Below are positions 3,140 through 64,000 of a stretch of DNA of 64,000 nucleotides, piece after piece. The DNA is from Symbiobacterium thermophilum (GTDB lineage Bacteria; Bacillota; Sulfobacillia; DYFQ01). The notes below the pieces were generated by a model. That model was not told where the DNA came from. It ran no database searches and saw only the letters and a program-made list of their open reading frames with translations. A program made the position numbers and the translations under genes. Positions within the stretch are counted from its first letter, which is position 1. Each line of letters starts with the position of its first letter. Location: contig DYFQ01000006.1 of the NCBI GenBank assembly GCA_020725105.1, positions 2,392 through 66,391 of the forward strand. Direction: 5' to 3'.

Positions 3140-3271
3140 CCACCTACCGTAGACGATAGCACGGGACCCCTTGAGTGTCAACGCTGGCCTGGAAGGACGA
3201 GCCAGCTATCCGCAGGTTCCCGCCTGCGGCCGGAGGTATACTATCGTTCGCCGCAAGAGGAGGTCCGGCCC

Positions 3272-13371: not shown

Positions 13372-13389
13372 GGCTCAAGCCCCCCGGGC

Positions 13390-19241: not shown

Positions 19242-19316
<75 letters not shown>

Positions 19317-19574
19317 GAGCGACCTTATCCGCTCGAACCCGCTAACGCCGGGCTGGGCGGCTGGCGCTACCGGGCCGTGACGACCCCTGGCGCCATCGGC
19401 TCGCGGGCGAGTTCAGCCCGACCGTCCCCACCGGCCTCGCACCTTCCGGCCGGCTCTCTTCGGGGGGATCCGGACCTACTGCTCCCGCGCATCGCCGTTG
19501 GTTTTCCGGCCCGCACCGGAGCCCGGCGGCATCCGCGCGCCAGTCCGGCTGGCCGGCTGGGTTTCCGGCAACTC

Positions 19575-19604
19575 ATTATAGGCGAGGCTTTTCTGGAGTG
19601 TCAA
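19575..19604 (-). promoter_or_regulatory. Sigma-A-type promoter TTGACA-18-TATAAT firing toward tRNA-Ala/leuS
   Basis: Minus strand reads cTTGACActccagaaaagcctcgccTATAATgag. The predicted TSS is ~250 nt upstream of the mature tRNA-Ala 5' end. Confidence 0.4.
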
Positions 19605-19641
19605 GGCAAGCCGGCCCGCCTGAAACGGCTGCCCGGAAGCG

Positions 19642-20004
19642 TCACGCCAGGTGTGCGGGACGCCCGGCCGGGCGGTTCCGTTCCCGGTCGATGTCGACGG
19701 TGACGGCGTCGCCCCACAACCGTTCGAGGGCGTAGAACTCGCGAGCCTGAGGCTGGAAGATGTGGGTCACGAGGCCACCGTAGTCCAGCACGACCCACGA
19801 TCCGGCGACGTAGCCTTCGCGGTGTCTCGGCTGGGCACCGGCCGCCGCCAGGCGCGCCTCGACCTCTTCGGCCACCGCCTGGACGTGCGGCCGCGAAACA
19901 CCGGTGCAGATGAGGAAGTAGTCGGTAACCAGGGTCACTTCATGCATGTCCAGCAGCACCACGTCCTGGGCTTTCCGGTCGATCACCGCCTCCACCGCCA
20001 GCAT
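19642..20004 (-). CDS. rsfS: Ribosomal silencing factor RsfS (Iojap family)
   Basis: LAVEAVIDRKAQDVVLLDMHEVTLVTDYFLICTGVSRPHVQAVAEEV is the canonical RsfS core. The start is uncertain: the track ORF extends to 20112 with a low-complexity N-terminus. Confidence 0.7.
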   Translation of the reverse strand: MLAVEAVIDRKAQDVVLLDMHEVTLVTDYFLICTGVSRPHVQAVAEEVEARLAAAGAQPRHREGYVAGSWVVLDYGGLVTHIFQPQAREFYALERLWGDAVTVDIDRERNRPAGRPAHLA

Positions 20005-24138: not shown

Positions 24139-24408
24139 CTAACCGATGAGGGCGGGCTCCGGCCTCACGTTCACCTGCTTCTTGTCCTTGCCCAGCCGCT
24201 GAAAAGTCACGTAGCCGTCGGCGAGGGCGAAGAGGGTGTCGTCCCGCCCGCGTCCGACGTTCAGGCCGGGATGGACCCGGGTCCCCCGCTGCCGCACGAG
24301 AATGCTGCCGGCGGAGACGAACTGGCCGTCGAACCGCTTGGCGCCGAGCCGCTTGGAGCGGGAGTCCCGGCCGTTGCGGGTGCTGCCCTGTCCCTTCTTG
24401 TGTGCCAT
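24139..24408 (-). CDS. rpmA: 50S ribosomal protein L27, without the Firmicute N-terminal propeptide
   Basis: [31 protein letters not shown]... Confidence 0.9.
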
Positions 24409-24454
24409 CGGGCCACCTCCTCACCCGGTCCCGGGACTTCGGCCCCGGTTCCTG

Positions 24455-24766
24455 CTAGGCCTGAATGTTGTCGATCCTGACCCGGGTATAGCCTTGCCGG
24501 TGCCCGTAGCGGCGGCGGTAGTTGACCTTTGGCTTGTACTTGAGACCCCGGATCTTCTTGCCCCGCCCGTGCTCCAGCACGGTTCCCACCGCCCGGGCGC
24601 CGGGCACGACCGGATTGCCCACCGCCACCTTACCGTCCGCGCGCACCACCAGCACGCGATCGAACGCGACTTCCTGTCCGACGTCCGCGTCAAGCCGTTC
24701 CACGGTGATGACATCGCCGGCGGCCACCCGGTACTGCTTGCCGCCGGTTTCAACGATGGCGTACAT
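24455..24766 (-). CDS. rplU: 50S ribosomal protein L21
   Basis: [25 protein letters not shown]...; a 46-nt gap to rpmA with no Prp (ysxB) gene between. Confidence 0.9.
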
Positions 24767-24840
24767 GGGCGTCCCTTCCGTCCTCCGTAGCCGGGCCGTG
24801 CCCCCGGAGCGGGCCACACTGGCCGGCTCAGCAACACCTT

Positions 24841-46279: not shown

Positions 46280-46400
46280 ACCCGGCCAACCCGGCAGCGG
46301 TACCCAGACCGGCCAGAAGTAGTCAAGGCACGGCGGCAGGAGACCCTCCGGAGGTCACGAATGCTTGACCGCTGCGCTCTAGAGAGGAGGACTTGCACGA

Positions 46401-47498
46401 GTGAAAAGGTACAGGCGTTTGGGGACGCTGGTGGCACTGGGCCTGGCAGCGCTGCTGGTGCTCTCGGGCTGCCGGCCGGCGGCGGAGGCCCCTCCGCCCG
46501 CGGGCGAGGCGCCGGCACCCAAGCTCAGGGTCGGCATCGTATACGACGTGGGTGGCCGCGGAGACCTTTCCTTCAACGACATGGCCTACGCCGGGCTGGA
46601 GCGGGCCCAGCGGGAGTTCGGGGACCGGATCGAGACCAGGGACCTGGAACCCGCCGCGGGCGGCGAGAACCGCGAGGAGCTCTTGCGCCTGCTGGCCAGC
46701 GAAGGCTACGACCTGATCTTCGGCATCGGCTTTCTGTTCACCGACAGCATCGAACGGGTGGCCAAGGAGTTCCCCAACGTCAAGTTCGGCCTGGTGGACG
46801 GCTTCATCGCCGACCTCGGACCCCAGTCCAACGTGGTCTGCCTGCTCTTCAACGAGCACGAGGGCTCGTTCCTGGTGGGCGCCGCGGCGGCGCTGAAGTC
46901 CAAGACGGGCAAGGTCGGCTTCGTCGGCGGGATGCGGATCCCCCTCATCGAGAAGTTCGAGGCGGGTTACATCGCCGGCGCCAAGTACGTGAACCCGGCC
47001 ATCGAGGTCTTCTCCGACTACGCCGGCACCACCGGCGAGGCCTTCCGCGACCCGGTGAAAGGCCGTGAACTGGCCCTGTCCCACTACGACCGCGGGGCCG
47101 ACATCATCTACCACGCCTCGGGCGGGACCGGCATCGGCGTCTTCGAGGCGGCGGTGGAGAAGAACAAGCTGGCCATCGGGGTCGACGCCGACCAGTCGCT
47201 GACGGTCAAGCCTGATCAGCGGGCCCACATCCTGACCAGCATGATGAAGCGGGTGGACGTGTCGGTCTACGAGACCATCAAGGCGCTGGTGGAACAGCGC
47301 TTTGAGGGCGGTTACCGCAACTTCGGCCTGGCCGACGACGGTGTGGGCTACGCCGAGAATCAGTACAACCGGGACACGATCGCCGACATCAAGCCCGAAC
47401 TGGAGCGACTGAAGCAGAAGATCGTGGCCGGGGAGATCAAGGTGCCCTCCAGCCGCAAGGAACTGGAGGCCTTCCTCGAGACCCTGCCAACCCGCTAA
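46401..47498 (+). CDS. BMP-family (PnrA/Med-like) ABC transporter substrate-binding lipoprotein, nucleoside-type
   Basis: GTG start after GAGAGGAGG; lipobox LVLSGC; BMP-family fold. Confidence 0.85.
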   Translation: MKRYRRLGTLVALGLAALLVLSGCRPAAEAPPPAGEAPAPKLRVGIVYDVGGRGDLSFNDMAYAGLERAQREFGDRIETRDLEPAAGGENREELLRLLASEGYDLIFGIGFLFTDSIERVAKEFPNVKFGLVDGFIADLGPQSNVVCLLFNEHEGSFLVGAAAALKSKTGKVGFVGGMRIPLIEKFEAGYIAGAKYVNPAIEVFSDYAGTTGEAFRDPVKGRELALSHYDRGADIIYHASGGTGIGVFEAAVEKNKLAIGVDADQSLTVKPDQRAHILTSMMKRVDVSVYETIKALVEQRFEGGYRNFGLADDGVGYAENQYNRDTIADIKPELERLKQKIVAGEIKVPSSRKELEAFLETLPTR

Positions 47499-47621
47499 CG
47501 GTGGACGCGGCAAAGGGGTGGGGATCCCGGCGGCTCCCACCCTTGCCGTGTTTTGCCGCCTGAGGTGCCGGGGCCGGGTGACCGGCCCCGGCCGCGCGGG
47601 CCGGAGGGATCAGGTGGCGGC

Positions 47622-49163
47622 TTGAACGAGTTCTTGCTTGAACTGCGGGGCATCACCAAGCGCTTTCCGGGTGTCGTGGCCAACGACGACATCCACCTCC
47701 GGGTGCGCCGGGGGGAGATCCACGCCGTCGTCGGCGAAAACGGGGCCGGCAAGTCCACCCTGATGAAGATCCTCTACGGCCTCTACCAGCCCGACGAGGG
47801 CCAGATCCTGCTGCACGGAGCCCCGACCGCCATCCCCCACCCCCGGGCCGCGCTGGGGCTCGGGATCGGCATGGTGCACCAGCACTTCATGCTGATCCCC
47901 CGGTTCACCGTGGCCGAGAACGTGGTCCTGGGCTCCGAGCGGGCCGCCTGGGGCATCCTTCACCCCCGCCGGGCCGAGGCGGAGGTGGCGGCGCTCTGCC
48001 GCCGGTACGGGCTGGCCCTGGATCCCGCGGCCGAGGTGGGCGGCCTCTCCGTAGGGGAGCAGCAACGGGTCGAGATCCTCAAGGTGCTCTACCGGGGGGC
48101 CGGACTCCTCATCCTGGACGAGCCCACGGCGGTGCTGGCCCCTCAGGAGGTCGCCGAACTCTTCGCCAACCTGCGCCGCCTCAAGGAGCAGGGCAAGACC
48201 ATCATCTTCATCAGCCACAAGCTCCAGGAGGTCCTGGAGATCGCCGACCAGATCACGGTGCTGCGCCGGGGCAGGGTGGTCGGCAGCGTGCCGGCGGCCG
48301 GAACCACCCGGGCCGGGCTGGCCGAGATGATGGTGGGTCGCCCCGTGCTCCTGGAACTCCAGCGTCCCGACACGACCCCCGGCGAGGTCCGCCTGGCCGC
48401 CGAGGGACTGTCGGTGGCCGGCAGCCGGGGCCGGCCCGCCGTTCGCGGGGTGTCGTTTTCCGTGCGGGCCGGCGAGATCTACGGCCTCGCCGGCGTGGAA
48501 GGCAACGGCCAGAGTGAGCTCTCCGAAGCCCTGGTGGGCCTGCGGCCCATCACCGCCGGGCGCCTGCTGATCGCCGGGCGCGACGCCACCGGCCTGTCCC
48601 CCCGGGAGGTGCGCCTGCTGGGCGTGGCCCACATCCCCGAGGACCGTCACCGGCGCGGCCTGGTGCTGCCCATGGAGGTCTACGAAAACATGATCCTGGG
48701 CCACCACTTCCGGCCGGTCTTCAACCGGGGCCCGCTGCTGGCGGCGGCGGAAGCCAGGGCCTTTGCCGCCGAGCGGGTGAAGAAGTACGACGTCCGGGTC
48801 CCGTCGGTCCGCACCCCGGCCCTGGCGCTTTCCGGCGGCAACCAGCAGAAGGCGGTGGTCGCCCGGGAGTTCAGCTTCGAGCCGCGGGTGCTGGTGGCGG
48901 CCCAGCCCACCCGGGGGCTGGACATCGGGGCTACCGAGTTCGTCGGGCAGGAACTGCTCCGGGCCAAGGAGCGGGGCATGGCCGTGGTGCTGGTGTCGTC
49001 GGACCTGGACGAGGTGCTGGCCCTGGCCGACCGCGTCGGGGTCATGTATAACGGCGAACTGGTGGCCGAGTTCAGGGCCGGCGAGGTCACCCTGGCCGAA
49101 CTGGGCCTGTACATGACGGGCGCCCGGCGGCAAGCGGAGCCGGGAGGTGAGCCGGCGCCGTGA
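47622..49163 (+). CDS. ABC transporter ATP-binding protein with duplicated ATPase domains (nucleoside/sugar type)
   Basis: Two Walker A motifs (GENGAGKST; GVEGNGQSE-type) and LSGGNQQK signature; start inferred at TTG 47622 after GGAGGGA; the track ORF starts at 47553. Confidence 0.85.
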   Translation: MNEFLLELRGITKRFPGVVANDDIHLRVRRGEIHAVVGENGAGKSTLMKILYGLYQPDEGQILLHGAPTAIPHPRAALGLGIGMVHQHFMLIPRFTVAENVVLGSERAAWGILHPRRAEAEVAALCRRYGLALDPAAEVGGLSVGEQQRVEILKVLYRGAGLLILDEPTAVLAPQEVAELFANLRRLKEQGKTIIFISHKLQEVLEIADQITVLRRGRVVGSVPAAGTTRAGLAEMMVGRPVLLELQRPDTTPGEVRLAAEGLSVAGSRGRPAVRGVSFSVRAGEIYGLAGVEGNGQSELSEALVGLRPITAGRLLIAGRDATGLSPREVRLLGVAHIPEDRHRRGLVLPMEVYENMILGHHFRPVFNRGPLLAAAEARAFAAERVKKYDVRVPSVRTPALALSGGNQQKAVVAREFSFEPRVLVAAQPTRGLDIGATEFVGQELLRAKERGMAVVLVSSDLDEVLALADRVGVMYNGELVAEFRAGEVTLAELGLYMTGARRQAEPGGEPAP

Positions 49164-50383
49164 AGCCAGCCGCCGGCCGGCGCCTGAAGCCGGGTTTGAG
49201 ACCGGGCCTGAGCCCGCGCTGGCGCCTGTGGCTGTTGCAGGTTTTGGCGCCGCTTCTGGCCATCCTCTTCGGGGCCCTGGTGGCCTCGGTCATCATCCTT
49301 TTCATCGGCAAGGACCCGCTGGCGGTCTACGGCCTCATGCTCCGCTTCAGCCTGACCCGCCCCGACAGCATCGCCTCCATCCTGTTCAAGGCGACGCCGC
49401 TCATCTTCGCCGGCCTGGCGGTGGCCATGAGCTTCCGGGCCGCGCTGTGGAACATCGGGGTGGAGGGCCAGTACTACGTCGGCGCCCTCTGCGCCGCCCT
49501 GGTGGCCTTCGGGGTAAAGGGTCTGCCGGTCGTGGTTCACCTGCCCCTCACCCTGCTGGCGGCGGTGGCCGGCGGCATGGCCTGGGCGCTGTTGCCCATC
49601 GTGCTGAAGCTGCGGCGGGGGGCCCACGAGGTCATCACCACCATCATGATGAACCACATCGCCGCCGCCGTGCTCCTGTACCTGCTGGCCGATGTCTTGC
49701 GGGACCCGGCGCAGGCGGGGACGCCCCGGGTCAGGACGCCGGTGTTCGAGCCGACGGCCCTGGTCCCGTCGCTCCGGCCGCTCCTGGACGCCGTCGGCTT
49801 CCGGATCCCCGGTTACTCCAGCCTGAACTGGCTGTTGCCCGCCGGGTTGCTCCTGGCCGGCCTGCTGTACCTCTTTCTCACCCGCACCCGCTTCGGCTAC
49901 GAGGTGCGGGCGGTGGCCCTGAACCCGGACGCGGCCGAGGCGGCCGGCATCCGCATCGCCCGGGTACAGTTCCTGATGTTTCTTTTGAGCGGCGGTATCG
50001 CCGGGCTGGTAGGGCTCAACGACGTGCTGGGCTTCTTCGGCTACCTGGACATCGACTTCCCCAAGGGGCTCGGTTTCCTGGGCATCTCGGTGGCGCTCCT
50101 GGCCAAGAACAACCCGCTGGGCGTCATCCTGGCCGCGCTGCTCATCGGCTTTCTTGACCGGGGCGCCCAGGGCGTGCAGGTCTTCGCCGGGGTGCCGCGG
50201 GAGGTCATCACCATCCTGCAGGCGGTGATCATCCTGGCCATCGTGGTGGCCTACGAACTCCTCACCCGCTACGTCCGGGTCCTCCGCAAGCGGGAGGCGG
50301 AACGGGCGGCGCCGCCCGCCGCGCCGTCCGGGACGCTTGCCGCGGCTGCGCCCGGCGGCCCGGGTCCGGGGGGTGGCGGTTGA
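49160..50383 (+). CDS. ABC transporter permease (BMP-system, first)
   Basis: Polytopic; overlaps the ATPase stop (GTGA). Confidence 0.85.
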   Translation: MKPAAGRRLKPGLRPGLSPRWRLWLLQVLAPLLAILFGALVASVIILFIGKDPLAVYGLMLRFSLTRPDSIASILFKATPLIFAGLAVAMSFRAALWNIGVEGQYYVGALCAALVAFGVKGLPVVVHLPLTLLAAVAGGMAWALLPIVLKLRRGAHEVITTIMMNHIAAAVLLYLLADVLRDPAQAGTPRVRTPVFEPTALVPSLRPLLDAVGFRIPGYSSLNWLLPAGLLLAGLLYLFLTRTRFGYEVRAVALNPDAAEAAGIRIARVQFLMFLLSGGIAGLVGLNDVLGFFGYLDIDFPKGLGFLGISVALLAKNNPLGVILAALLIGFLDRGAQGVQVFAGVPREVITILQAVIILAIVVAYELLTRYVRVLRKREAERAAPPAAPSGTLAAAAPGGPGPGGGG

Positions 50384-51315
50384 TGGAGACGCTGGCGTCC
50401 CTCTTCAGCCTGGCGCTCCTGGCGTCGGCCGTCCGGCTGACGGTGCCCGTCCTCCTGGCCGCCCTGGGGGCCGTCTTCTCCGAGCGCGGCGGGGTCATCA
50501 ACATCGGCCTCGAAGGCATCATGATCATGGGCACCTTCTTCGGCGCCGTGGGCACCTACTACGGGGGCCCGGTGGTGGGGCTTCTGGCGGCCGTCGCGGC
50601 CGGTGTCGTCTTCTCCGCCGTCCACGGCCTGCTGGCCATCACCTTACGGGTGGACCAGATCATCAGCGGCGTGGTCCTGAACATGCTGGCCGTCGGGCTG
50701 GCCAGGTTTCTCAACATCATGCTCTTCGGCGTGGCCACCCAGTCCCCGGGCATCCGTGGCTTCACCCCGCTGAGCATCCCGGTGCTCCGCGACATCCCGG
50801 CGCTCAAGCCCATCGCCGCCGGCATCTCACCCCTCATCCCGCTGGCGCTGGCGCTCGTGGTCGCGGGCCACTGGGTGCTGGTGCGCACCACTTTCGGGCT
50901 CCGGCTCAGGGCGGTGGGCGAGAACCCGCTGGCCGCCGACACGGTGGGCGTCAACGTGTTTCTCATGCGCTACCTCGGCGTGCTCATCAGCGGCGCCCTG
51001 GCGGGGATGGCCGGCGCCTACCTCTCCATCGAGCAGGGTCGGGGTTACCTGGAGGGAATGACCCAGGGCCGCGGCTTCATCGCCCTGGCCGCCATGATCT
51101 TCGGCAACTGGTGGCCGGTGGGCGCCCTGGGCGCCTCGGCGCTGTTCGGCTACTTCGACGCCCTGAGCCTCCGGGTGGTGGCCCTGAACGTGCCCTACCA
51201 GTTCCTGAACGTGCTCCCCCACATCGTGACCATCCTGGTGCTGGCGGGCTTCGTGCGCCGGGCCCGGCCACCGGCCGCCGACGGGATCCCCTACGCCAAA
51301 GAGGAGCAAGGATGA
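50380..51315 (+). CDS. ABC transporter permease (BMP-system, second)
   Basis: Polytopic; ATGA overlap with the preceding gene. Confidence 0.85.
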   Translation: MMETLASLFSLALLASAVRLTVPVLLAALGAVFSERGGVINIGLEGIMIMGTFFGAVGTYYGGPVVGLLAAVAAGVVFSAVHGLLAITLRVDQIISGVVLNMLAVGLARFLNIMLFGVATQSPGIRGFTPLSIPVLRDIPALKPIAAGISPLIPLALALVVAGHWVLVRTTFGLRLRAVGENPLAADTVGVNVFLMRYLGVLISGALAGMAGAYLSIEQGRGYLEGMTQGRGFIALAAMIFGNWWPVGALGASALFGYFDALSLRVVALNVPYQFLNVLPHIVTILVLAGFVRRARPPAADGIPYAKEEQG

Positions 51316-54878: not shown

Positions 54879-55111
54879 GGGATCGGTTCTCCTTCCTCTC
54901 AGGAACTGGGGACCGGGACTACGGCACCGCTACCCGGGTGCCTCGGGTCGAGTGGTTCACCTGACCCTTCCCTGTCCCATCGCCTCCCTCATCGAGGTGG
55001 AAACCGATCCGCCGCGCAGGAGTCCATTGTTCCCTGGCTGGCTCCTATTTTACTCCGCCACAAACCCCTGTCAATCGGCCAAACGGCCGTTGATCCCGAT
55101 ACAAGAACCGG

Positions 55112-56071
55112 TCAACCGGCGCCATCCTGGCGACAGCGGCCCATGACCCCTCGCAGGACCGCCCCGTCCACGTTGCCTCCCGTCAGGACCACTGCCACCC
55201 GCCGGCCGGAAAATGCCCGGCCCGCCTCGAGCAGGGCCGCCACGCCCACGGCTCCCGACCCCTCGACCACCAGCCGCTCCCGTTCCAGGCACCAGACCAT
55301 GGCCCGGGCGATGGCCGGTTCCGAAACCGTCCACACGCCGTCCAGCCAGGCGCGGCAGCGCTCGAAACTGGAGCGGCTCGTCCGGCCGGCCAGCCCGTCG
55401 GCGAGGCTGGGGCCGATGGGGACCTCCACGAAGCGCCCGGCGCCGAAAGAAGCGGCCATCGGCGCCGAGGCCTCGGGCTGCACGCCGATGACCCGGACGC
55501 CGGGCCTCGCCTCCTTCACGGCCATGGCCACGCCCGCGGCCAGGCCGCCGCCGCCCACCGGCACCACGACGTCGTCGACCTCGGGCCAGTCCTCGGCCAG
55601 TTCCAGGCCGACGGTCCCCTGGCCCTCGCCGACCCGCGGGTCGTCAAAGGCGTGCACGAAAAGGGCTTTCGTCTGGCTGGCCAGCTCCAGCGCGGCGTCC
55701 TCCGCCTCGTCGTAGGTGGCGCCACGTTCCACGACCCGGGCTCCCAGGCGACGGGTGGCCTCCACCTTGCCCCGGCTGGCTCCCGTGGGGACCATCAGCG
55801 TGGCCTCGAAGCCAAGGCCCCTTGCGGCGTGGGCCACGCCCAGCGCGTGATTGCCGGCCGAAGCCGCCACCAGGCCGACCCCCCTCGCCGCGGGACCGAG
55901 GCTCAGCAGAAAGTTGTACGCCCCCCGCACCTTGAAAGAGCGGGTCACCTGCCAGCACTCGAGCTTCAGCGCGACCTCTGCGCCGGTGGCCTCGCTCAGA
56001 GCCGGCGAGGGCACCAGCGGCGTGCGGCGGACAAAGGGGCGGATCCGGCGGGCCGCAGCCGTTGCCGCCAC
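55112..56071 (-). CDS. PLP-dependent fold-type II enzyme, threonine/serine dehydratase-like
   Basis: Lys motif SFKVRGAYN, glycine-rich PVGGGGLAAGVA. Start inferred at GTG ~56071; the track ORF extends to 56173. Confidence 0.75.
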   Translation of the reverse strand: MAATAAARRIRPFVRRTPLVPSPALSEATGAEVALKLECWQVTRSFKVRGAYNFLLSLGPAARGVGLVAASAGNHALGVAHAARGLGFEATLMVPTGASRGKVEATRRLGARVVERGATYDEAEDAALELASQTKALFVHAFDDPRVGEGQGTVGLELAEDWPEVDDVVVPVGGGGLAAGVAMAVKEARPGVRVIGVQPEASAPMAASFGAGRFVEVPIGPSLADGLAGRTSRSSFERCRAWLDGVWTVSEPAIARAMVWCLERERLVVEGSGAVGVAALLEAGRAFSGRRVAVVLTGGNVDGAVLRGVMGRCRQDGAG

Positions 56072-56127
56072 GATCGGGTGTCGCAGGTGGCCGGTCTTGA
56101 AAGAGTCACGAGCTTCCGCGTGCTTCT

Positions 56128-58077
56128 TCACAGCTCTTGTGCCTCGATTACGCTTGCCTGATGCAAGCGCCACCAGGCGCTCTCCAGGCCCAGCGACTGC
56201 AGACGGGGCAGCCGCTGCAGCCCGGTTGCGGGATCCCAGCCCTGCAGAGCATAGTACTTCGTCAGCATCGCATCGAAAGCGTCCCGGTCGATCCGGCAGC
56301 CGGAGAAGATGCCCCCGCTGACCGGCACGCTCATCACCCGTTCGGGCAGGTAATCGTCGCGTCGACTCATACGACCATGCAAAGTGTTGAACGCTCTCTC
56401 CACGTTGACAATGCGATGGCCGATAGTGAGCAGCTCACCTTCGCTCAGCTCAGCAGTGCCCGTGGCCTTCAGCAACCGGCACAGGTTGCCGGGGTCGGCA
56501 AGAGCTACATCGTACCAACCATAGACCAGATAGCAAAGGCCCAAGCAATCTATGACAGCCTTGTAGGCGTCAAACCAGTACACCAGACGCTCTTTACCGG
56601 TGTACGCTGTCGGATCTCCCGCCGCAGGACAGCCGAAGAGCGATGCTCCCGCTTCGGCGGACAGCTGACGGTTCTCCGTTTGCGGGCTGCCCCCCAGGTG
56701 CCCGCCGCCACGGGTGCTTACCGCGACTCCTAGCGCCCAGGCCCGGTGAGACCGCAGGGCCTGTTCGTTGATGCCGACACCCTTCACGTGCATGGCGGCC
56801 TTCACCGCCGCGCCGCCAACCTGTTGTGCGGCCAGGGAGACGCCTTCCGCCAGCAGATCCCCCAGTCCTTCCCGGTGCGCTATCTGCCGGACCAGTTTCA
56901 GAGCCTGCCTGCTGTCGCCAAAGCGGACCGTTGACCCCCGCCAGGTGTGGGCGGAAAGCCAGCCGTGCTCGAATCCTTCCATGGCCCATGCTACGGTTGC
57001 GGAGGTGCCATCAACGTCAAGACCTAGCGCGTTGCAGGCCGCGTGGACTTCAAGGATGGCCCGCCGGTCGCAGACGTCCCAGTTCGGGCCAAAGCCCCGC
57101 ACTGAATTGGCGTGCATCCCCTCGCACAGGCGCCCGTTCGGCAACCGGTACAGGTGAAGGCACCTGATGAAACAGCCCGGGCAACCGGTCCTACCCACCT
57201 CGTACTCGGCTTTGAAGGCAGTCTCGCTGATTAACCGGTTCTTTTGGACCGGCCAGTATTCGTCCTGAAGGTTCCGAACCGATGCGGGCGCCCCGCCGCT
57301 CCACCCTCCCGCTGCCGCCATGCCGTGCGTCCCAGCGCGCCGGAGAACAGAGGCCGCCTCGGAGGCTTTTAGCTTCCAGACTAGCCGCCGCGCCAGCTCG
57401 AGAAAGTCGGAACTCGGGGCCGAGTTGGGTGAGGACGGGGGAGCGGCGATGGCTTTCAGGTTCTTGGCTCCAAGAATGGCACCAACTCCCCCCCACGCCG
57501 CCGCGTGCGAACCGTCCACCATCAAGCAGGCAATCCTCACCAGATTCTCCCCGGCCGGACCGATGGATCCTATGCTCAGTGCGGGTTCACCGTAACGTTG
57601 CCTGAGCGCCTCCTCGGTTTCCCAGGTCGACAGACCCCACAGCCACCCGGCTGGAAGAATGTGGACGCCCTCTTGATCAACATGAAGATACACGGGACGC
57701 TGGGCCTGCCCCGTGATCACCAAAGCGTCGAGCCCGGCCCCGCGCAGCGCCCCGGCCAGACCGCCACCTGCTGAGGAATAGCTGATGCCGTTAGACAGAA
57801 GATTCTTCGTGCCCACGCTAAGCCGGCACGCAGCGGGGACCCGGGACCCTGCAACTGCTCCAGGAGCCACGACGACTACGTTGTCCGGAGCCAGGGGGTT
57901 CACCGATGGACTGACTCGGTCCCAGATAAACCAGCTGGCCAGGCCTCGGCCGCCAAGCCAGGTGCAGCGGTCATGCGACCGGGTGATTTCTACGGATCGG
58001 TGGGACAGGTCCACCCATGCAACGGTGACTGGAGCCGCTCCCGACGCGCCCAACCCCCTTGCCACCGGCCGAGCCAC
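56128..58077 (-). CDS. Aldehyde:ferredoxin oxidoreductase (AOR) family tungsto/molybdo-pterin enzyme
   Basis: AOR N-terminal domain (LGGRGLASWFIW..., NPLAPDNVVVVAPGAVAGS) and [4Fe-4S] ligand motif GRTGCPGCFIRC, 649 aa. GTG start 8 nt after the upstream permease stop. Lower GC than the flanking DNA. Confidence 0.8.
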   Translation of the reverse strand: MARPVARGLGASGAAPVTVAWVDLSHRSVEITRSHDRCTWLGGRGLASWFIWDRVSPSVNPLAPDNVVVVAPGAVAGSRVPAACRLSVGTKNLLSNGISYSSAGGGLAGALRGAGLDALVITGQAQRPVYLHVDQEGVHILPAGWLWGLSTWETEEALRQRYGEPALSIGSIGPAGENLVRIACLMVDGSHAAAWGGVGAILGAKNLKAIAAPPSSPNSAPSSDFLELARRLVWKLKASEAASVLRRAGTHGMAAAGGWSGGAPASVRNLQDEYWPVQKNRLISETAFKAEYEVGRTGCPGCFIRCLHLYRLPNGRLCEGMHANSVRGFGPNWDVCDRRAILEVHAACNALGLDVDGTSATVAWAMEGFEHGWLSAHTWRGSTVRFGDSRQALKLVRQIAHREGLGDLLAEGVSLAAQQVGGAAVKAAMHVKGVGINEQALRSHRAWALGVAVSTRGGGHLGGSPQTENRQLSAEAGASLFGCPAAGDPTAYTGKERLVYWFDAYKAVIDCLGLCYLVYGWYDVALADPGNLCRLLKATGTAELSEGELLTIGHRIVNVERAFNTLHGRMSRRDDYLPERVMSVPVSGGIFSGCRIDRDAFDAMLTKYYALQGWDPATGLQRLPRLQSLGLESAWWRLHQASVIEAQEL

Positions 58078-58085
58078 AGGCGGGT

Positions 58086-59024
58086 CTACGCCCTTGCCTC
58101 CCGATCATAGGGCTTGAGGAGAGCCTGCGGTGCCTGAGCGCCACGGTAGGCTCGGATGGCCACCAGCACGACGAACACGTAGGGCAACATCAGCATGAAC
58201 TGGGGAGGGACGGTCTGGATGGTCAGTCCCAGCCGGTATTGCAGGGCGTCAACGTAGCCAAACAGCCACGCCCCCATCAGCGTACCAAACGGCACCCAGC
58301 GGCCCAGTATCACCAGCATCAACGAGATCCAACCGCGACCGCCCACCATGCCCTCGCTGTAAGTACCGGTTAGCATCATGGGAAGCAGCGCTCCGGCCAC
58401 TCCGATCAACATACCGCCTATCATTAGGCAGGCGTAGCGAAGCCTTGTAACGGGGATGCCAAGGGAGTCCGCACACCGTGGGTTCTCACCGGTCGCTCTG
58501 ACTCGTAACCCGATGGTGGTATGAAACAGGAACAGGTGCATGATGGCAACAACACCGATGACCACGTAGGACGGGGCCGGCACTCGGAAAAGCCAGCGGC
58601 CAACTATGGGGAGCTCGCTCAGGACTGGCACCTCAACGGCCGGAAAGGTGGCAATCATCGGGGGCAGGAAGCGCAGTCCGATGACCATCCGGTACAGCAG
58701 CGACGAGAGGCCGGTGCCCAGTATGAACAAGGCGAGGCCAATCGTCAGCTGCGGGGCATGGAGCGTAATCGCCGCGTAACCAAGGACAAGCCCGAGAATT
58801 GCCGCTGCCAGGGCTGCCGCCACCAGCCCAAACAGCTTGGCACCGGTAACGTATGCGACCAGGAAGCCAACCACCGCTCCTAAAGCCATCATGCCTTCGA
58901 TGGAAACGTTCAGGATGCCGGAGCGTTGGATCAGAAGTTCGCCCTGGGCCGCCAATACCAGAGGCGTTGCTACAAACACCATCTGGCGGAGCACTTCAGG
59001 GTCAAAGAAGAACTGCCACCCCAT
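58086..59024 (-). CDS. ABC transporter permease (second BMP-type system)
   Basis: 312-aa polytopic protein homologous to the 50380..51315 permease; GC ~60%. Confidence 0.8.
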   Translation of the reverse strand: MGWQFFFDPEVLRQMVFVATPLVLAAQGELLIQRSGILNVSIEGMMALGAVVGFLVAYVTGAKLFGLVAAALAAAILGLVLGYAAITLHAPQLTIGLALFILGTGLSSLLYRMVIGLRFLPPMIATFPAVEVPVLSELPIVGRWLFRVPAPSYVVIGVVAIMHLFLFHTTIGLRVRATGENPRCADSLGIPVTRLRYACLMIGGMLIGVAGALLPMMLTGTYSEGMVGGRGWISLMLVILGRWVPFGTLMGAWLFGYVDALQYRLGLTIQTVPPQFMLMLPYVFVVLVAIRAYRGAQAPQALLKPYDREARA

Positions 59025-59055
59025 GCATGTCCTCTCCTGTGGCCGGGGGCCGGAG

Positions 59056-60063
59056 TCAGATCACGTAACGTTCCCTGCGAGCTCGCAGAGCCTCAACGAC
59101 CATGATGACGATGACCACGAGCGCCTGGACGAGGAAGACGGCGCTAGCCGGGAATCCCACCGTTCGTTGCAGAGAGTCGGATCCAGCGACCAGCACGGCA
59201 AAAGCAAAACTGACTGGGATCAACACCAACGGGTGGTAGCGCGCCAGAACGGCTACCAGGATTCCCATGAACCCATACCCGGGCGTCAAGCCCACGAGCA
59301 ACCTCTCATGGACTCCTGCCACCTCGATTGCCCCGGCCAGGCCCGACAGGCCCCCACCAAGGGTCAGGGCGATCAGCTGGACGCGTGTAACCCCAATCCC
59401 AGCGATGAGCGCGGCTCGGGCATTGGCACCGACCGCGCGCATCTCGTAACCAGGAACGGTGCGATAAAGCAACCCCCAAGTGAGCACGGCGACGGCACAG
59501 GCTAGCAGCACTCCGGTATGGGCACCGCCCCTCGTGATGAGCATTGGCAAGGCAGCGGTACGGGGAATGGGGTACGTGATCGCCTCACCGGCCGTCGGGT
59601 CGTTCCATGGCCCGGTGCACAAGAATTCCACGAGGTAAGCCGCCACGAAGTTTAGCATGACGGTGGTAAAGATCTCACTGACGCCCCAGGCGGCACGCAG
59701 TACCCCTGCGATAAGCACAAATGCGGCACCGGCCATCGCTCCGCCCGCCAGCACCAGCGGTACCATTTGCCAGGCGGGTAGCCCGGCCGGTGCCAGGCTA
59801 AGGCCGATGCCCGTTGCCAGTACACCGCCCACGTAGATCTGACCATCCATGCCGATATTTGCGAGCCCGACTTGACGGCTGAGTGAAAAGGTTATCGCTA
59901 CCAAGAGCAACGGTGTCATACGGTTCAGGGTCTGGGCAAACCCACCGATGCTACCCAGGGAGTCGTTGAGTGCCGTCTTGTATGCAACCCAGGGATCGTG
60001 GCGAAGGATGGCGATGACCAGCGTGTTTATGGCCAGTGCCGCTGCGAGAGCCGCAACATACAT
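59056..60063 (-). CDS. ABC transporter permease (second BMP-type system)
   Basis: Polytopic. Start assumed at MYVAALAAAL (~60063); the Cys/His-rich 40-aa extension of the track ORF to 60183 is probably not real. Confidence 0.7.
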   Translation of the reverse strand: MYVAALAAALAINTLVIAILRHDPWVAYKTALNDSLGSIGGFAQTLNRMTPLLLVAITFSLSRQVGLANIGMDGQIYVGGVLATGIGLSLAPAGLPAWQMVPLVLAGGAMAGAAFVLIAGVLRAAWGVSEIFTTVMLNFVAAYLVEFLCTGPWNDPTAGEAITYPIPRTAALPMLITRGGAHTGVLLACAVAVLTWGLLYRTVPGYEMRAVGANARAALIAGIGVTRVQLIALTLGGGLSGLAGAIEVAGVHERLLVGLTPGYGFMGILVAVLARYHPLVLIPVSFAFAVLVAGSDSLQRTVGFPASAVFLVQALVVIVIMVVEALRARRERYVI

Positions 60064-60151
60064 CCCGATGCTCAACTGCCTGGTCACGCGTTGCCCCGAT
60101 GGGCGCCGGGAGTTCACGTGTTGCACCTGAACGCACCTGCAATCTGTGTGA

Positions 60152-61768
60152 TCATGCAGCTGAACCCAGCATTGCCTCGCCAATGGAGTAACGGTCGTAG
60201 CCAGGTCCGTCGAACTCAGCTACCGTTTGGCCCCGATGCAGCACCACGATGTGATGACACAGGCCGATGAGCTCGTCAAGATCCTCAGACACCAGTAACA
60301 CTGCCCCACCGCGACCGACCACCGACCGTAGCTGCTGGTGAACATGTTGGACGGCCCGTACGTCCAAGCCCCGGGAGGGGTTAAGCGCCACTACTACCGG
60401 CTCAGCTCGGATCCGGCAAGTTTCAACGGCTCTTGCCAGAATCAGTTTTTGGATGTTACCGCCGGAAAGGTAGGTTGACGGGATCAGCGGATGCGGAGCC
60501 CGTACGGCATGCTGCTCAATGGCATTTCGTCCCAGCTGCATGGCGCGAGCAAAGTCGTACCAGACGTTCGGAAACAGGTGCCGATGCAGGCCCAGGACCA
60601 CCGTCTCCGCCAGGGTCATCCCGGGGAGAATGCCGTCCCGCACCCGGTCTTCGGGTACCAGGACCAGGCCTCGGTCCAGCCGGTCACGGATGGGCAACTT
60701 TGTGATGTCCACGCCAGACAATCTGATGCGCCCAGCCGCGACAGGCAGTAGTCCCACCAGTAGTTCCGCCAGCTCCCGCTGACCGCTCCCTGCCACGCCG
60801 GCCACACCGACGATCTCGCCCGCACGCAGCCGAAAGCTGATGCCTTGAAGCCGTAGCCGGTTGTGGGTACCTACTGTGCTGGTTTCTTCCACCTCCAACA
60901 GCACGGGAGCGTCCGGTGCCGGCGGGGCGGGCCTGGCGGTCTCCAGTAGCTTGGTGGCTGCCGCCGGCGGCTCGCCCATCATCCATTGAACCAGGAGTTC
61001 CTCGGTACCGCCGGCTGCAGGCAGGCTGGCAACCACACGCCCGCCCCGCATCACTGTCAGGCGGTCGCCGACTCGAAGCGCGTCCCGGAGTTTGTGGGTG
61101 ACGAGCAGGATGGCCAGCCCACTGGCGGCCAACCGCTGAAGCGTGACAAGAAGTGTGTCCACTTCCTGCGGAGTGAGAAAGGTCGTTGGTTCATCGAGGA
61201 TGAGGATGCGAGCCCGGCGGTACAACATCTTTAGAATCTCAACTTTTTGCTGCAAACCGACGGGCAGGTCCCTGACTCGGGCGTCGATGTCCACCTCAAC
61301 CCCATGCTCACTGGCCAGCTGACGTACGGCCTGGTGACACCGACGCCGCGTCAGTGCGAACCGGCCACCTTCTGCACCGAGGACGACGTTTTCCCAAACG
61401 CTGAGGTTGTCCACCAGCTCAAAGTGCTGATGTACCATGGTCACGCCAAGCTTGAGGGCATCCGCCGGTGTTCTGACGGCAAACTGCTGGCCATTCACCA
61501 GCACTTCTCCCTGGTCCGGGCGGTAAAGGCCGGCGAGGACACACATCAGCGACGTCTTCCCGGCGCCGTTCTCACCCAGAACGACGTGAATCTCGCCCGG
61601 ATATACGTCCAGCGAAGCCCCAGCTAGTGCCTGGATGGACCCAAAACGCTTCCAGACGTTTACCAGCCGGACAAGGGGTTGTTTTGTGATTGGGCTACCT
61701 CCCCCGAACTTGAGTTCACACCGGAGCTGGTCCGGGCACTGGTAATCTCTCGCCGGATCAGGAAACAT
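60152..61768 (-). CDS. ABC transporter ATP-binding protein with duplicated ATPase domains (second BMP-type system)
   Basis: Two Walker A motifs (GENGAGKTSL; GVAGSGQRE) and LSGGNIQK signature; N-terminal start uncertain, with no good RBS-start pair and an IS relic immediately upstream. Confidence 0.8.
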   Translation of the reverse strand: MFPDPARDYQCPDQLRCELKFGGGSPITKQPLVRLVNVWKRFGSIQALAGASLDVYPGEIHVVLGENGAGKTSLMCVLAGLYRPDQGEVLVNGQQFAVRTPADALKLGVTMVHQHFELVDNLSVWENVVLGAEGGRFALTRRRCHQAVRQLASEHGVEVDIDARVRDLPVGLQQKVEILKMLYRRARILILDEPTTFLTPQEVDTLLVTLQRLAASGLAILLVTHKLRDALRVGDRLTVMRGGRVVASLPAAGGTEELLVQWMMGEPPAAATKLLETARPAPPAPDAPVLLEVEETSTVGTHNRLRLQGISFRLRAGEIVGVAGVAGSGQRELAELLVGLLPVAAGRIRLSGVDITKLPIRDRLDRGLVLVPEDRVRDGILPGMTLAETVVLGLHRHLFPNVWYDFARAMQLGRNAIEQHAVRAPHPLIPSTYLSGGNIQKLILARAVETCRIRAEPVVVALNPSRGLDVRAVQHVHQQLRSVVGRGGAVLLVSEDLDELIGLCHHIVVLHRGQTVAEFDGPGYDRYSIGEAMLGSAA

Positions 61769-61774
61769 GTCTTA

Positions 61775-62345
61775 CGCGGCCGGCCAGGGTCTCGGATGTC
61801 TCCCCCCATCAGGTCTGGCGGGTGCTCAGACGGCACGGCATCCACCTCAGACGCGGAAGGAGTTGGTGCGTGAGCACTGATCCCGAGTTCACTTCGAAGG
61901 CGGCGGACATCGTCGGCCTCTACCTGGACCCGCCAAGCAACGCAGTGGTCTTGTGCGTGGACGAAAAGCCGCGCATCCAGGCGCTGGAACGGGCCCAGGG
62001 CTGGCTGAGGCTGCCTGATGGCCGGGCGCTGACCGGCTTCAGCCACCATTACCAGAGACACGGGACCACCACCCTGTTTGCCGCCCTGGACGTGGCCACC
62101 GGGCTGGTGAAGACGGCCACTTCAAGCGCCGGCGGCGCCGGGAGTTTTTGGACTTCATGAACGACGTGGTCGCCGACTACCCTGAGCGGGAGATCCACGT
62201 CATCCTGGATAACCTCAACACCCACAAGCCCAAGCGGGACCGTTGGCTCCGCGGATCGGCCGATTGACGCCTACAACGCCGAGGCGGCGCCCTTTGAATG
62301 GCGCAAGCCGGTCGTGTGCCCTACAAGGCCTGCGACGAAAGTGCG
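61775..62345 (+). mobile_element. Degraded IS630-family transposase gene (pseudogene; N-terminal HTH missing, frameshifted, C-terminus decayed)
   Basis: VWRVLRRHGIHLRRGRSWCVSTDPEFTSKAADIVGLYLDPPSNAVVLCVDEKPRIQALERAQ...HHYQRHGTTTLFAALDVATG, then after a frameshift MNDVVADYPEREIHVILDNLNTHKPKRDRWL are the diagnostic IS630/Tc1-mariner DDE segments. It sits between the SBP and ATPase genes of the island transporter. Confidence 0.7.
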
Positions 62346-62365
62346 CTGACTTATGCAACTAAGCA

Positions 62366-63388
62366 CTAGTCGCGAATCTCGTCAGTGATCTCGGGGAGTT
62401 GGATGGCACCGGACGCAACTTGCTCGAAGATCAGCTGGACCCGACTGGCCGTCTCGGGCGAGACGTTCTGGATGGCTGCCAGGGCCATACCGTTGCCCGG
62501 CCGCATCTCCTCGTAACCACCCCGTGTGCCGGCCAAGATCTGCCCGAGCACCTTCTTGTAGGGGACGGCAAAGTCCAGCAGTAACGAGGTGGTAAAATTG
62601 TTCGGAGCCAGGTTCGCCTTGTCCGTGTAAAAGGTAGTGAGCAGGACGGGTGTCTCCTTGGCGGCCTCGATGACGCCGTAGGCGCCCAGGTTCACGATGA
62701 GGATGATAAAGTCGACGCCCGTCCCGATCTGCGCCTCAGCCGCCTGGCGAGCCTTGACCGGGTCGTTCTGGTCACCCACGAAGGTGTAGACCACTTCAGC
62801 GTTGGGATTCAGTTCCCTGACAGCCTGTTTGATGGCGTTGATGGACGCAACGAAGTCCGGTAGCCGAATACCGACGACGACGCCAATCTTGTTGGACTTG
62901 GTAGCCAGCGCGGCCAGGGCGCCCAAGCCATAGAAGCCCTGATAAAACTTGCGCCCTATGTTCCAAACGTTGGAAGGCAGGTCCGGCAGGGGGCCGCTTG
63001 ACTCGGCAATGAACGTGACGTCAGGGAACATGGGGGCGAGCTTACGGACGGTCGTCACGTATTGCCCACCGTGGAACGCCACTATAGTGTATCCGTCGTT
63101 GATAAAACCCCGTGCCACCCTCTCGGCATCTGCCGGCGGTACCTGCTCCTGGTACTTGGCGGTCACGCCGAATTGTCGCTCCAACTCCAGCAGGGCCAGG
63201 TAACCCACGAAATTGTAATCGGCGTCCTGAACTGTTCCAGGCAGGATCATGGCCAGCTTCGGTTTGGGCTGCTCAGCCGGCGCGGGCTCGGCTGCCTTGC
63301 CGGCCGGTTTGCTAACGCAACCACTCAGGAATAACGCCGCAACCAGTACGAGGCCGAACATTTTTCGAAGTGCCGCCGGCGTGCACAT
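62366..63388 (-). CDS. BMP-family ABC transporter substrate-binding lipoprotein (second system)
   Basis: Lipobox ALFLSGC; BMP/Med fold. Start probably the second ATG (MCTPAALRKMFGLV) after GGGAGG; the track ORF starts at 63403. Confidence 0.8.
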   Translation of the reverse strand: MCTPAALRKMFGLVLVAALFLSGCVSKPAGKAAEPAPAEQPKPKLAMILPGTVQDADYNFVGYLALLELERQFGVTAKYQEQVPPADAERVARGFINDGYTIVAFHGGQYVTTVRKLAPMFPDVTFIAESSGPLPDLPSNVWNIGRKFYQGFYGLGALAALATKSNKIGVVVGIRLPDFVASINAIKQAVRELNPNAEVVYTFVGDQNDPVKARQAAEAQIGTGVDFIILIVNLGAYGVIEAAKETPVLLTTFYTDKANLAPNNFTTSLLLDFAVPYKKVLGQILAGTRGGYEEMRPGNGMALAAIQNVSPETASRVQLIFEQVASGAIQLPEITDEIRD

Positions 63389-63674
63389 ATTGCAACCTCC
63401 CATACTGGCGGAACCAGCGCACCGATCACCGCAAACTTATATACGGCCCCTTGTCCGAAGTGTTCCCCGGCTCACACATGTGGTTACAGCGTTTGATGCT
63501 CTATGAGCACAGTCCTTTGGGAACGTCTTCTAAAATTGAGGGCGTGTGTTTGTAAAATGTGTCCGACTGCGCTCTGCCCGGGACAGGCCTTCGGCTGACC
63601 CAAATACCTGCGGGGTGCCGATGAAGGCCAGGCGTGACTGGTGGTTGCCGGCCCGACAGTAGTGGAAAGGCGTT

Positions 63675-64000
63675 CTAGCCCCGATGCCTGTGGAAGAAGC
63701 GGCTCATCCGGCCAAGTGCCTCCTCCAGCCGGTCGGTGTCGTAGCCGAAGCCCAGCCGGAAGTGCCCCTCCTGCTCGAAGCAGGAGCCGGGAATGGTGAG
63801 GACCCCTTCCTCCTCGATGAGCCGGTGGCAGAACTCCTCGGAGGGGAGGTCCAGGTGGTAGCGGGGAAAGCAAACCACACCGGCCCGAGGCGGAACGTAG
63901 GAGACGAACGCCTGGTGCTCGCGGACCCAGCCGTCGAAGATCCGGAAGTTGGTCCTGGCCAGCCGCAGGCTGCGATCCATCACTCGCTCGTGGTGGGTCA
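63675..64000 (-). CDS. PLP-dependent aminotransferase (class I/II), C-terminal fragment; gene continues beyond the window end
   Basis: C-terminal FEQEGHFRLGFGYDTDRLEEALGRMSRFF is typical of class-I aminotransferase C-termini; the frame stays open to position 64000; GC returns to >70%. Confidence 0.55.
   Translation of the reverse strand, partial: THHERVMDRSLRLARTNFRIFDGWVREHQAFVSYVPPRAGVVCFPRYHLDLPSEEFCHRLIEEEGVLTIPGSCFEQEGHFRLGFGYDTDRLEEALGRMSRFFHRHRG

Follow-up and report, generated by a model that had tools for sequence, protein, structure and literature searches.

The DNA analysed here is a stretch of 64,000 nucleotides (the window) from contig DYFQ01000006.1 of an assembly assigned to Symbiobacterium thermophilum (GCA_020725105.1), and its subject is a block of ~7.5 kb near the right-hand end, in which an ATP-binding cassette (ABC) importer of the BMP family is encoded together with an oxidoreductase of the AOR/WOR family. 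The block, whose borders lie near 56.13 and 63.67 kb, was originally predicted to encode a BMP-type substrate-binding protein (SBP), a double-domain ATPase, two permeases and an AOR, all on the minus strand, and Pfam agrees for all five genes (Table 1). The five open reading frames (ORFs) are intact and full length relative to the family models, and the layout is that of a BMP importer, with a PF02608 SBP (102.8 bits, cut-off 24.1) that carries a lipobox, a fused two-domain ATPase and two BPD_transp_2 permeases. The SBP gene likely starts at its second ATG, which is preceded at a distance of 7 nt by a GGGAGG Shine-Dalgarno sequence. The start of permease 1 corresponds to Met41 of the longest ORF (to 60183), in agreement with an NCBIfam alignment from residue 42 and with the JGI call of 335 aa. 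The 8-nt gap between the stop codon of permease 2 and the start of the AOR gene and the GCPGCFIRC motif of the AOR are both present as described. The tight spacing that had been claimed for the genes holds at this permease–AOR junction, but not between the SBP and ATPase genes, which are 597 nt apart. At the right border, the spacer before high GC resumes is 271 nt long (270 nt had been given), and its GC content is 56.8% and not ~50%.

Table 1. Features of the acquired block and its flanks (window coordinates; aa, amino acids; GC3, GC content at third codon positions; PLP, pyridoxal phosphate)
Feature	Position	Strand	Remarks
Native class I/II aminotransferase gene, 3' end	63675..64000	-	GC3 0.89; native composition resumes at the right
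Right-border spacer, 271 nt, presumed promoter/operator	63404..63674	.	From aminotransferase stop to SBP gene; GC 0.568
BMP-family SBP lipoprotein, 340 aa from second ATG	62366..63388	-	ORF to 63403; lipobox L-S-G-C
IS630-type transposase remnant	61769..62365	+	Frameshifted, cut short, antisense to the operon; PF13358
Fused double ABC ATPase	60152..61768	-	Two PF00005 stretches; GC3 0.68
Permease 1 (BPD_transp_2), 335 aa	59056..60063	-	PF02653, 90 bits; GC3 0.71
Permease 2 (BPD_transp_2), 312 aa	58086..59024	-	PF02653, 119.8 bits; GC3 0.73
AOR/WOR-family oxidoreductase, single subunit, 649 aa	56128..58077	-	AFOR_N and AFOR_C; 'His-Ala-Asn' clade
Native PLP-dependent serine/threonine-dehydratase-like (PALP) gene	55112..56131	-	PF00291, 277.6 bits; GC3 0.86
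Terminator-like hairpin	55107..55120	-	End of PALP gene; consensus match only

The block is set apart by its base composition. In 500-nt windows the GC content is 0.58–0.66 from ~56.0 kb to the end of the window, compared with 0.69–0.79 in the 8 kb before it; the average over the whole window is ~0.70–0.77, with one further dip at 11–15 kb. The decisive measure is GC3, because it separates the island from that dip. Twenty confident native genes have a GC3 of 0.896 ± 0.018 with a minimum of 0.87, whereas the values within the island are 0.72 for the AOR gene, 0.73 and 0.71 for the permease genes, 0.68 for the ATPase gene and 0.76 for the SBP gene, ~7–12 standard deviations under the native mean. 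Both borders are sharp: GC3 is 0.86 in the PALP gene on the left and 0.89 in the partial aminotransferase gene on the right, and past the window end, on a sister contig (L064/L071), it reaches 0.91–0.93 in the aminotransferase, EngB and Lon genes. The sliding-window GC and codon-position check that had been recommended in the original prediction therefore finds the island distinct from its flanks. None of the three results named there as contradicting the prediction was obtained. With its distinct composition, sharp borders and an internal insertion sequence (IS) remnant of the IS630 type, the block is horizontally acquired, and the foreign origin that had been claimed for it is borne out. The dip at 11–15 kb was considered as a second island and rejected. 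It corresponds to the prkA/yhbH (DUF444)/spoVR cluster (10823–15354, minus strand), which has a total GC of 0.64–0.67 and a native GC3 of 0.88–0.92; the dip stems from amino-acid composition and could pass for an island.

An assembly chimera, a concern because the source is a metagenome assembly, and native DNA of odd composition are both highly improbable explanations of the block. An independent JGI contig differs from window positions 55,605–64,000 by 2 mismatches in 8,396 nt (99.976% identity) and contains both junctions, and the right junction, from the aminotransferase gene through the SBP gene into the IS remnant, was also found in two further unrelated sequencing runs; the chimera was therefore rejected. 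Odd native composition is contradicted by the other low-GC region of the window, which keeps its native GC3. Direct and inverted repeats flanking the island were limited to matches of 14–25 nt, which is chance level, and we found no integrase among the window ORFs and no tRNA target or flanking repeats that would qualify as hallmarks of an island.

The gap between the SBP and ATPase genes is filled by a frameshifted and truncated IS630-type transposase on the plus strand, in whose three-frame translation '...VLCVDEKP...' and '...HVILDNLNTHKPKRD...' can be read and which matches PF13358 (DDE_3) with 36.5 bits (cut-off 28.6). The remnant extends under the annotated first 25–30 codons of the ATPase ORF. 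The true ATPase start is probably located ~25–30 codons downstream of the ATG at 61768; the alignment of the ATPase to its NCBIfam model starts at residue 32. Two short-read Logan contigs (L072 and L073) stop within the remnant, as is expected for a repeated element, which suggests that further copies of the IS630-type element are present in the genome or the community.

At the opposite end of the island, the TGA of the AOR gene (56130–56128) overlaps the in-frame GTG of the native PALP gene (56131–56129) in a GTGA junction. The PALP and AOR genes probably share a transcript, with coupled translation, and since the sole minus-strand terminator-like hairpin in 54.8–64.0 kb lies after the PALP gene, the acquired genes are probably transcribed together with the host gene. 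The horizontally acquired AOR gene would thus seem to be translationally coupled to a host gene through a precise junction. The hairpin likely marks the end of the transcription unit, although the total of hairpin hits is not above shuffled expectation. No sigma-70 consensus was detected on the minus strand upstream of the SBP gene, the counts of the promoter and terminator scan did not exceed shuffled expectation, and a scan of 55–64 kb gave no riboswitch match in Rfam at E<=1. The PALP protein, which falls under every NCBIfam cut-off, was also considered as a YgeX-like diaminopropionate ammonia-lyase. This assignment was rejected: the score reached 62.7 bits where 276 is the cut-off, and at other loci a PALP gene does not recur beside the AOR.

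Judged by its sequence, the oxidoreductase of the island is a bona fide member of the AOR/WOR family with full predicted cofactor-binding capacity. PF02730 (AFOR_N, 206.3 bits) and PF01314 (AFOR_C, 276.7 bits) both match over their full length, all nine of its PDB matches are AOR/WOR family members, and the best solved-structure match is PfAOR (PDB 1AOR; E 1.5e-84, 34.8% identity). Its closest non-self relatives, from Clostridia (Lutispora), Synergistota (Aminivibrio), Syntrophomonadaceae and Anaerolineae, are 41–51% identical, and in a neighbour-joining tree the window AOR, a long branch, joins the Bacillota/Synergistota half of the clade at its base, with the AOR of locus L003 (numbers with L denote loci and contigs used for comparison) as its nearest neighbour. 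The active site was examined in a MAFFT alignment of the window AOR, 22 clade members, PfAOR, 9MQX and the Aromatoleum AOR. The cluster ligands C299, C302, C306 and C515 (C288, C291, C295 and C494 in PfAOR) and the pterin/Mg residues R85, D354, D510 and A192 (R76, D343, D489 and A183) are kept in the window protein and invariant in the 23 clade members, and the four cysteines are present in 120 of 120 sequences from the best database hits. As in PfAOR and other Class I WORs, two-domain architecture and cofactor ligands are thus accompanied by the equivalents of Thr243 and His448 (T250 and H460), which are also invariant in the clade, and the island contains no gene for a partner subunit, which fits the ferredoxin-dependent layout of Class I (PMC13328260).

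The remainder of the substrate shell is different. The window AOR has N324, Q439, H322, A323 and H191 at the positions of PfAOR Glu313, Tyr427, Glu311, Tyr312 and Arg182. Across the clade, Glu313 is replaced by Asn in 23/23 members, Tyr427 by Gln in 21/23, Glu311 by His in 22/23, and Tyr312 by Ala and Arg182 by His (21/23); Tyr452 is not kept. The changes at Glu313 and Tyr427 agree in two MAFFT alignments and in the phmmer pairwise alignment. When the 120 best database hits were aligned with MAFFT in a third comparison, the same signature appeared, with Asn at the Glu313 position in 120/120 sequences and the exact eight-residue signature in 108/120. In aldehyde-oxidising members of the family, Thr243, Glu313, Tyr427 and His448 form a conserved second shell, and in BamB and YdhV, which catalyse other chemistry, these residues are absent (PMC12096430, PMC13328260). 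The comparison with the known AOR clades, which had been proposed as a check, therefore separates the protein from aldehyde-oxidising AOR sensu stricto (PfAOR, FOR and GOR type) on two counts: the second shell is only half retained, with Thr and His kept and Glu313 and Tyr427 changed, and the AOR equivalog NF007354 scores 160.1 bits against a cut-off of 868, with the N-terminal domain alone matched. By these sequence criteria the relatives form a distinct, uncharacterised clade with a rebuilt substrate shell, which we call the 'His-Ala-Asn' clade. Since Glu313 and Tyr427, the pair by which aldehyde-oxidising AORs are defined, are lost from the whole clade, a new specificity within the family, raised before as a possibility, now appears likely.

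BamB (class II benzoyl-CoA reductase) and YdhV provide the precedent for loss of the second shell together with other reactions, such as aromatic ring reduction (PMC12096430). The extra metal ligand of these enzymes (C322 in BamB, C336 in YdhV) has no conserved counterpart in the clade. Apart from the four cysteines that bind the cluster, only C184 and C348 are conserved, and these two also occur in canonical AORs; C318 is not conserved. A BamB-like mechanism with a Cys ligand was rejected on these grounds. A BamC/YdhY-type Fe-S partner gene is also absent from the island, unlike in BamB and YdhV systems. Only the N-terminal domain of the window AOR aligned with BamB, so the comparison of the C-terminal part is indirect.

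Two sub-branches with variant signatures were seen. In five Anaerolineales loci (L026, L028, L032, L034 and L048), Gly occupies the Tyr427 position instead of Gln (H-T-H-A-N-G-H-R); these AOR genes have no adjacent transporter and lie near housekeeping genes, for example glmS, and their function may have diverged. A more distant sub-branch (L025, L031, L041, L053 and L054, with L043 and L045 from Bathyarchaeia) has the signature R-T-H-T-N-Q-H-L at 40–41% identity. A gene for a ferredoxin-like protein of ~98 aa is found immediately upstream of the AOR gene in L025, L031, L053, L054 and the Bathyarchaeia loci, but not in L041, and classical TRAP DctP/DctM genes adjoin the AOR gene in the bacterial loci, including L041. 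This sub-branch may be a Class II-like variant with another substrate.

To look for the pairing of AOR and BMP transporter in other genomes, as the original prediction had advised, a profile scan with the clade alignment was run on one genome per species, which gave 58 loci, and metagenome contigs were added. Neighbouring genes were mapped by tblastn, ORF clustering and Pfam/NCBIfam, and loci with an AOR carrying the signature and with usable flanks were taken as informative (n = 34); some of them are near-identical pairs, so the counts overstate the number of independent cases. An AOR of the clade is located beside a transporter in ~31 of the 34 informative loci, which come from Chloroflexota, Bacillota and Synergistota. 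The four-gene BMP-ABC set stands directly beside the AOR gene, mostly co-oriented, in ~17 loci (Anaerolineae, Syntrophomonadaceae, the window and L003), and one or two NCS2 nucleobase:cation symporters do so in ~10 (Lutispora and other Clostridia, Synergistaceae and L070). TAXI-TRAP transporters are found at three loci, an MFS transporter at one and no transporter at three. Locus L003 has the same co-oriented gene order as the window, with identities of 61/56/57/58/50% for Bmp, ATPase, the two permeases and AOR.

That non-homologous transporters interchange while adjacency to the AOR is maintained in three phyla points to functional coupling, and indicates that the pairing of BMP importer and AOR is functional and not fortuitous; the predicted link between importer and enzyme is thus upheld by its recurrence and by the substitution of other transporters elsewhere. 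Fortuitous adjacency, or a generic role in aldehyde detoxification of the kind to which Class I WORs are generally ascribed (PMC13328260), is a very remote prospect in view of ~31 of 34 loci and four non-homologous transporter types. In several loci (L065, at 2193–4319 and 10001–11890; L067, at 10001–11902 and 18022–19908; L024; Anaerolineae) the BMP transporter is encoded between two AOR paralogues. In the paired Anaerolineae AORs, one is of the His-Ala-Asn type and the other combines a near-canonical Glu-Tyr-Glu signature with either His or Gln where PfAOR has Tyr427, an arrangement that hints at two sequential pterin-dependent steps.

The ligand of the importer was approached through solved SBP structures. 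BMP-family transporters had been described as classically purine-nucleoside importers, and the layout of this one is that of the PnrA/TmpC systems, with a lipoprotein SBP, a fused ATPase and two BPD_transp_2 permeases. The SBP itself is more distant: it scores 103 bits with PF02608, against 251 for the native SBP of the window, its match to PnrA (2fqw) is far weaker (E 8e-4), and its nearest solved relatives are AtzT (6pi5, E 8e-25), 4p98, 7x0r and 3s99 (E 4e-14). AtzT was purified with guanine bound, for which its KD is 0.11 uM, and it also binds adenine and 2-hydroxyatrazine (PMC6834077); 3S99 is an adenine-bound BMP protein from Brucella. Both relatives thus bind free bases and not nucleosides (PMC6834077). 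In the pocket comparison, another of the checks proposed beforehand, these base binders are nearest and the pocket is still distinct: the stacking Tyr45 and one Asn of AtzT are kept, whereas Ser97, Glu165, Asn169, Trp194 and Asn218 are replaced by Gly, Asp, Ser, Gln and Ile. The SBPs of the window and of L003 form a pocket subtype of their own among AOR-linked SBPs. Since most ligand contacts of AtzT are changed, the ligand would not simply be guanine. We infer from these comparisons that it is a free nucleobase-type heterocycle other than guanine itself, and a heterocycle of this type is more likely than a nucleoside. The NCS2 proteins that replace the importer at other loci belong to the xanthine/uracil-permease superfamily.

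Vitamin B6 or pyridoxal was also considered as the substrate, an idea prompted by hits to the NCBIfam 'putative B6 ABC transporter' models and by the two PLP genes on either side of the island. The four models (NF047927-30) score 68.9, 422.7, 163.4 and 177.4 bits, far under their cut-offs of 400, 670, 465 and 400, and the flanking PLP genes have native composition; the candidate was rejected. The SBP model also hits, at 80–102 bits, the PnrA-like SBP native to the window and every AOR-linked SBP, and its label thus stands for BMP similarity in general. The position of the island between two PLP-dependent genes is regarded as coincidence.

The surroundings of homologous cassettes place the clade in the context of anaerobic purine and ureide catabolism. 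Beside the cassette of L003 are AllF/AllG, a PF04199 cyclase, an amidohydrolase of the cytosine-deaminase subfamily, a three-subunit enzyme of the xanthine dehydrogenase (XDH) type, a uracil-permease-like NCS2 protein and the start of a YgfK equivalog (646 bits across the first 364 residues). The neighbours in L067 are a YgeY-family M20 hydrolase, a UbiD-family decarboxylase, SsnA-like and TRZ/ATZ amidohydrolases, two D-hydantoinases above cut-off, an OTCase-like carbamoyltransferase and a GntR regulator. Loci L004, L021 and L070 combine AllH/F/G, the cyclase, XDH, AOR and NCS2 permeases, with an AllD-like dehydrogenase also in L004, and in L069 MoeA, MobB, ThiS/ThiF and a TupA-like ABC system lie beside a member of the AOR clade. 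AllFGH is oxamic transcarbamylase, and the enzymes of the recently described 2,8-dioxopurine (reductive uric-acid) pathway are XdhD, YgfK, SsnA, HyuA, YgeW, YgeY and YgeX (bioRxiv 10.1101/2025.05.19.654654, 10.1101/2025.04.24.650524; PMC11326118). By homology, then, the neighbours of these cassettes correspond to hydrolases and redox enzymes of the 2,8-dioxopurine and allantoin/oxamate routes. The resemblance to the 2,8-dioxopurine cluster of E. coli and Clostridium extends to YgfK, XDH-type, SsnA-like, D-hydantoinase, YgeY-family, carbamoyltransferase and AllF/G/H genes. The window, in contrast, has none of the genes of this cluster, and equivalents of XdhD/DOPDH, YgfK, SsnA, HyuA, YgeW, YgeY and YgeX were searched for there without a hit. 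XDH-type enzymes, which the original prediction had named as usual partners of BMP importers, do occur often in homologous loci, but beside the AOR and not as an alternative to it.

Such a genomic tie to nucleobase-type transporters and purine-catabolic genes has not been reported for characterised WORs. AOR/WOR enzymes and BMP transporters do not appear in either of the two pathway papers, purines, nucleobases and permeases are not mentioned in the 2025 review or the 2026 WOR classification, and in the full-text literature searched we found no paper that links an AOR/WOR enzyme to purines, nucleobases or these transporters. The same literature yielded no characterised pairing of a BMP importer with an AOR, in line with what had been claimed.

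The observed foreign composition, gene content, conserved synteny, altered active-site signature and catabolic neighbourhoods are the basis of a model whose ligand class, electron partner, metal, co-transcription and reaction are predictions. We consider the island to be an acquired nucleobase-uptake and redox module of an uncharacterised, purine-linked AOR clade, derived from anaerobic catabolism of purines or N-heterocycles, and assign to this reading a probability of roughly 0.6. In the model, the lipoprotein SBP would capture a purine base or a close analogue and the ABC translocator would import the captured N-heterocycle. The co-transcribed cytoplasmic AOR, carrying a W- or Mo-bis-pyranopterin and one [4Fe-4S] cluster, would then pass two electrons between ferredoxin, as a low-potential carrier, and the imported compound or a direct derivative of it, in the direction of either oxidation or reduction. 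An oxopurine would be the preferred substrate, and ring-carbon (de)hydroxylation, in which water would supply the oxygen, or reduction the preferred reaction, ahead of generic aldehyde oxidation. Action on the purine ring itself, as a ferredoxin-dependent oxopurine reductase or hydroxylase, for example in the (de)hydroxylation of urate or xanthine, or through ring reduction, is favoured by the loss of the general base and of the aldehyde-positioning Tyr, by the minimal recurring unit, which in the window and in Lutispora is transporter plus enzyme, and by the BamB precedent for ring chemistry in the family; as a specific assignment of the clade, however, it is tentative.

Several observations weigh against this reading. 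The IS remnant splits the SBP gene from the rest of the operon and overlies the 5' end of the ATPase gene, and could impair expression. The SBP pocket departs both from that of AtzT and from the pattern of most other AOR-linked SBPs, and the neighbours of some clade members include TAXI-TRAP or aromatic-acid-type MFS transporters as well as an HMGL-like enzyme, for which carboxylates are the more frequent substrates. Both L003 and L070 already possess XDH-type enzymes, and L003 also YgfK, so the AOR would be an extra step and not an obvious replacement. XDH, YgfK, amidohydrolase, ferredoxin, tungstate-uptake and pterin-synthesis genes were not found in the 64 kb, and the host may be unable to use the module. 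Gene neighbourhood, finally, cannot fix the reaction.

The alternative to ring chemistry is classical AOR chemistry, that is, carboxylate/aldehyde interconversion, in which the substrate would be either the imported compound (a heteroaromatic acid or aldehyde) or a small product of ureide breakdown such as glyoxylate, oxalate or oxamate. The fold, the cofactor ligands, Thr243 and His448 are all retained, and nearby genes for AllFGH, AllD-like proteins and an oxalate-type CoA-transferase make or use C2 acids. TAXI-TRAP and aromatic-acid-type MFS transporters, which replace BMP and NCS2 transporters in some loci, more often handle carboxylates. Outside BamB and ASOR, moreover, aldehyde/acid conversions are the sole well-established reactions of the family (PMC12096430). 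Yet throughout the clade other residues stand in for Glu313, the proposed general base, and for Tyr427, which positions the aldehyde, and WOR4, with a single Tyr-to-Trp change, is without aldehyde activity (PMC12096430). The minimal unit of transporter and AOR in the window and in Lutispora also favours an imported compound over a late intermediate. On balance we regard classical chemistry as a rather unlikely explanation.

A different concern is that the cassette might be decaying and non-functional in this host, either because it is not expressed or because the enzyme is made without its metal. The IS630 remnant between the SBP and ATPase genes and over the ATPase start would fit such decay, as would the lack of a regulator gene in the island, since GntR-type regulators accompany homologous loci. 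The original prediction had stated that no tungstate transporter or pterin-cofactor genes are present in the window, and this holds: none for uptake of tungstate or molybdate or for pterin-cofactor synthesis was found among the ~45 window ORFs scanned, a survey that covers 64 kb of the genome. However, the five ORFs are intact, the AOR retains all ~80 clade-invariant residues, and the decayed part is the IS. The GC3 of the island (0.68–0.76) is well above the total GC of most homologous loci (0.39–0.63), which fits long residence under selection, and the overlap of the AOR stop codon with a native start codon (GTGA) suggests integration into a host transcription unit. Decay is therefore considered improbable.

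What is known at this locus is the enzyme fold and the transporter family; what is new is the conserved partnership, the distinctive active site and, likely, the substrate class. A physiological role is established for only 5 of the 92 recognised WOR/AOR clades (PMC13328260). The present clade, with its rebuilt active site, its place beside nucleobase transporters in three phyla and its occurrence within purine/ureide catabolic loci, gives such an orphan group a concrete function to test, and cultured carriers exist in Lutispora saccharofermentans and Aminivibrio pyruvatiphilus. In the anaerobic purine pathways published in 2025, the redox work falls to selenium-dependent molybdenum hydroxylases and a flavoenzyme, and a tungsten-type enzyme has no part in them; the association suggests that anoxic purine turnover includes a redox step not yet recognised, or an option that replaces the selenium enzymes. 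If the AOR does act on the ring, it would provide a selenium-independent entry into anaerobic purine degradation or a new step of it, and would add a third kind of non-aldehyde chemistry to those of BamB and ASOR and give the AOR family its first role in nucleobase metabolism. Importer and enzyme would then constitute a portable two-part module; in the window genome they travel together as a minimal mobile unit.

The host is a deep-branching, high-GC, spore-forming member of the Bacillota. This placement follows from its ValRS, which is <=67% identical to any database relative and has Thermaerobacter, Limnochordia, Calderihabitans and Moorella-type Bacillota as named neighbours, and from sporulation and cell-shape genes. 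Genes recognised in the window are valS, folC, maf, radC, mreBCD, PBP2, minCD, rodA, obg, leuS, comEA/EC, holA, rpsT, spoIIP, spoVR, prkA, hrcA and dnaJ. The native aminotransferase at the right flank (L064, 3009–4142) scores best with GntC, capreomycidine-synthase-type PLP enzymes and PRK07324, in each case below cut-off, and is therefore an unclassified PLP enzyme. A 191-aa ORF at 24215–24790 on the plus strand has a GC3 of 0.78, a native-like codon composition and no Pfam family. The window also contains a second, native BMP ABC importer (46,383–51,315, plus strand), composed of SBP, ATPase and two permeases with a GC3 of ~0.9. Its SBP, the one that scores 251 bits with PF02608, is 25% identical to that of the island. 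The importer is followed by a gene for an Indigoidine_A/PsuG-type pseudouridine-5'-phosphate glycosidase (region to 53136), and looks like a classical nucleoside-type system.

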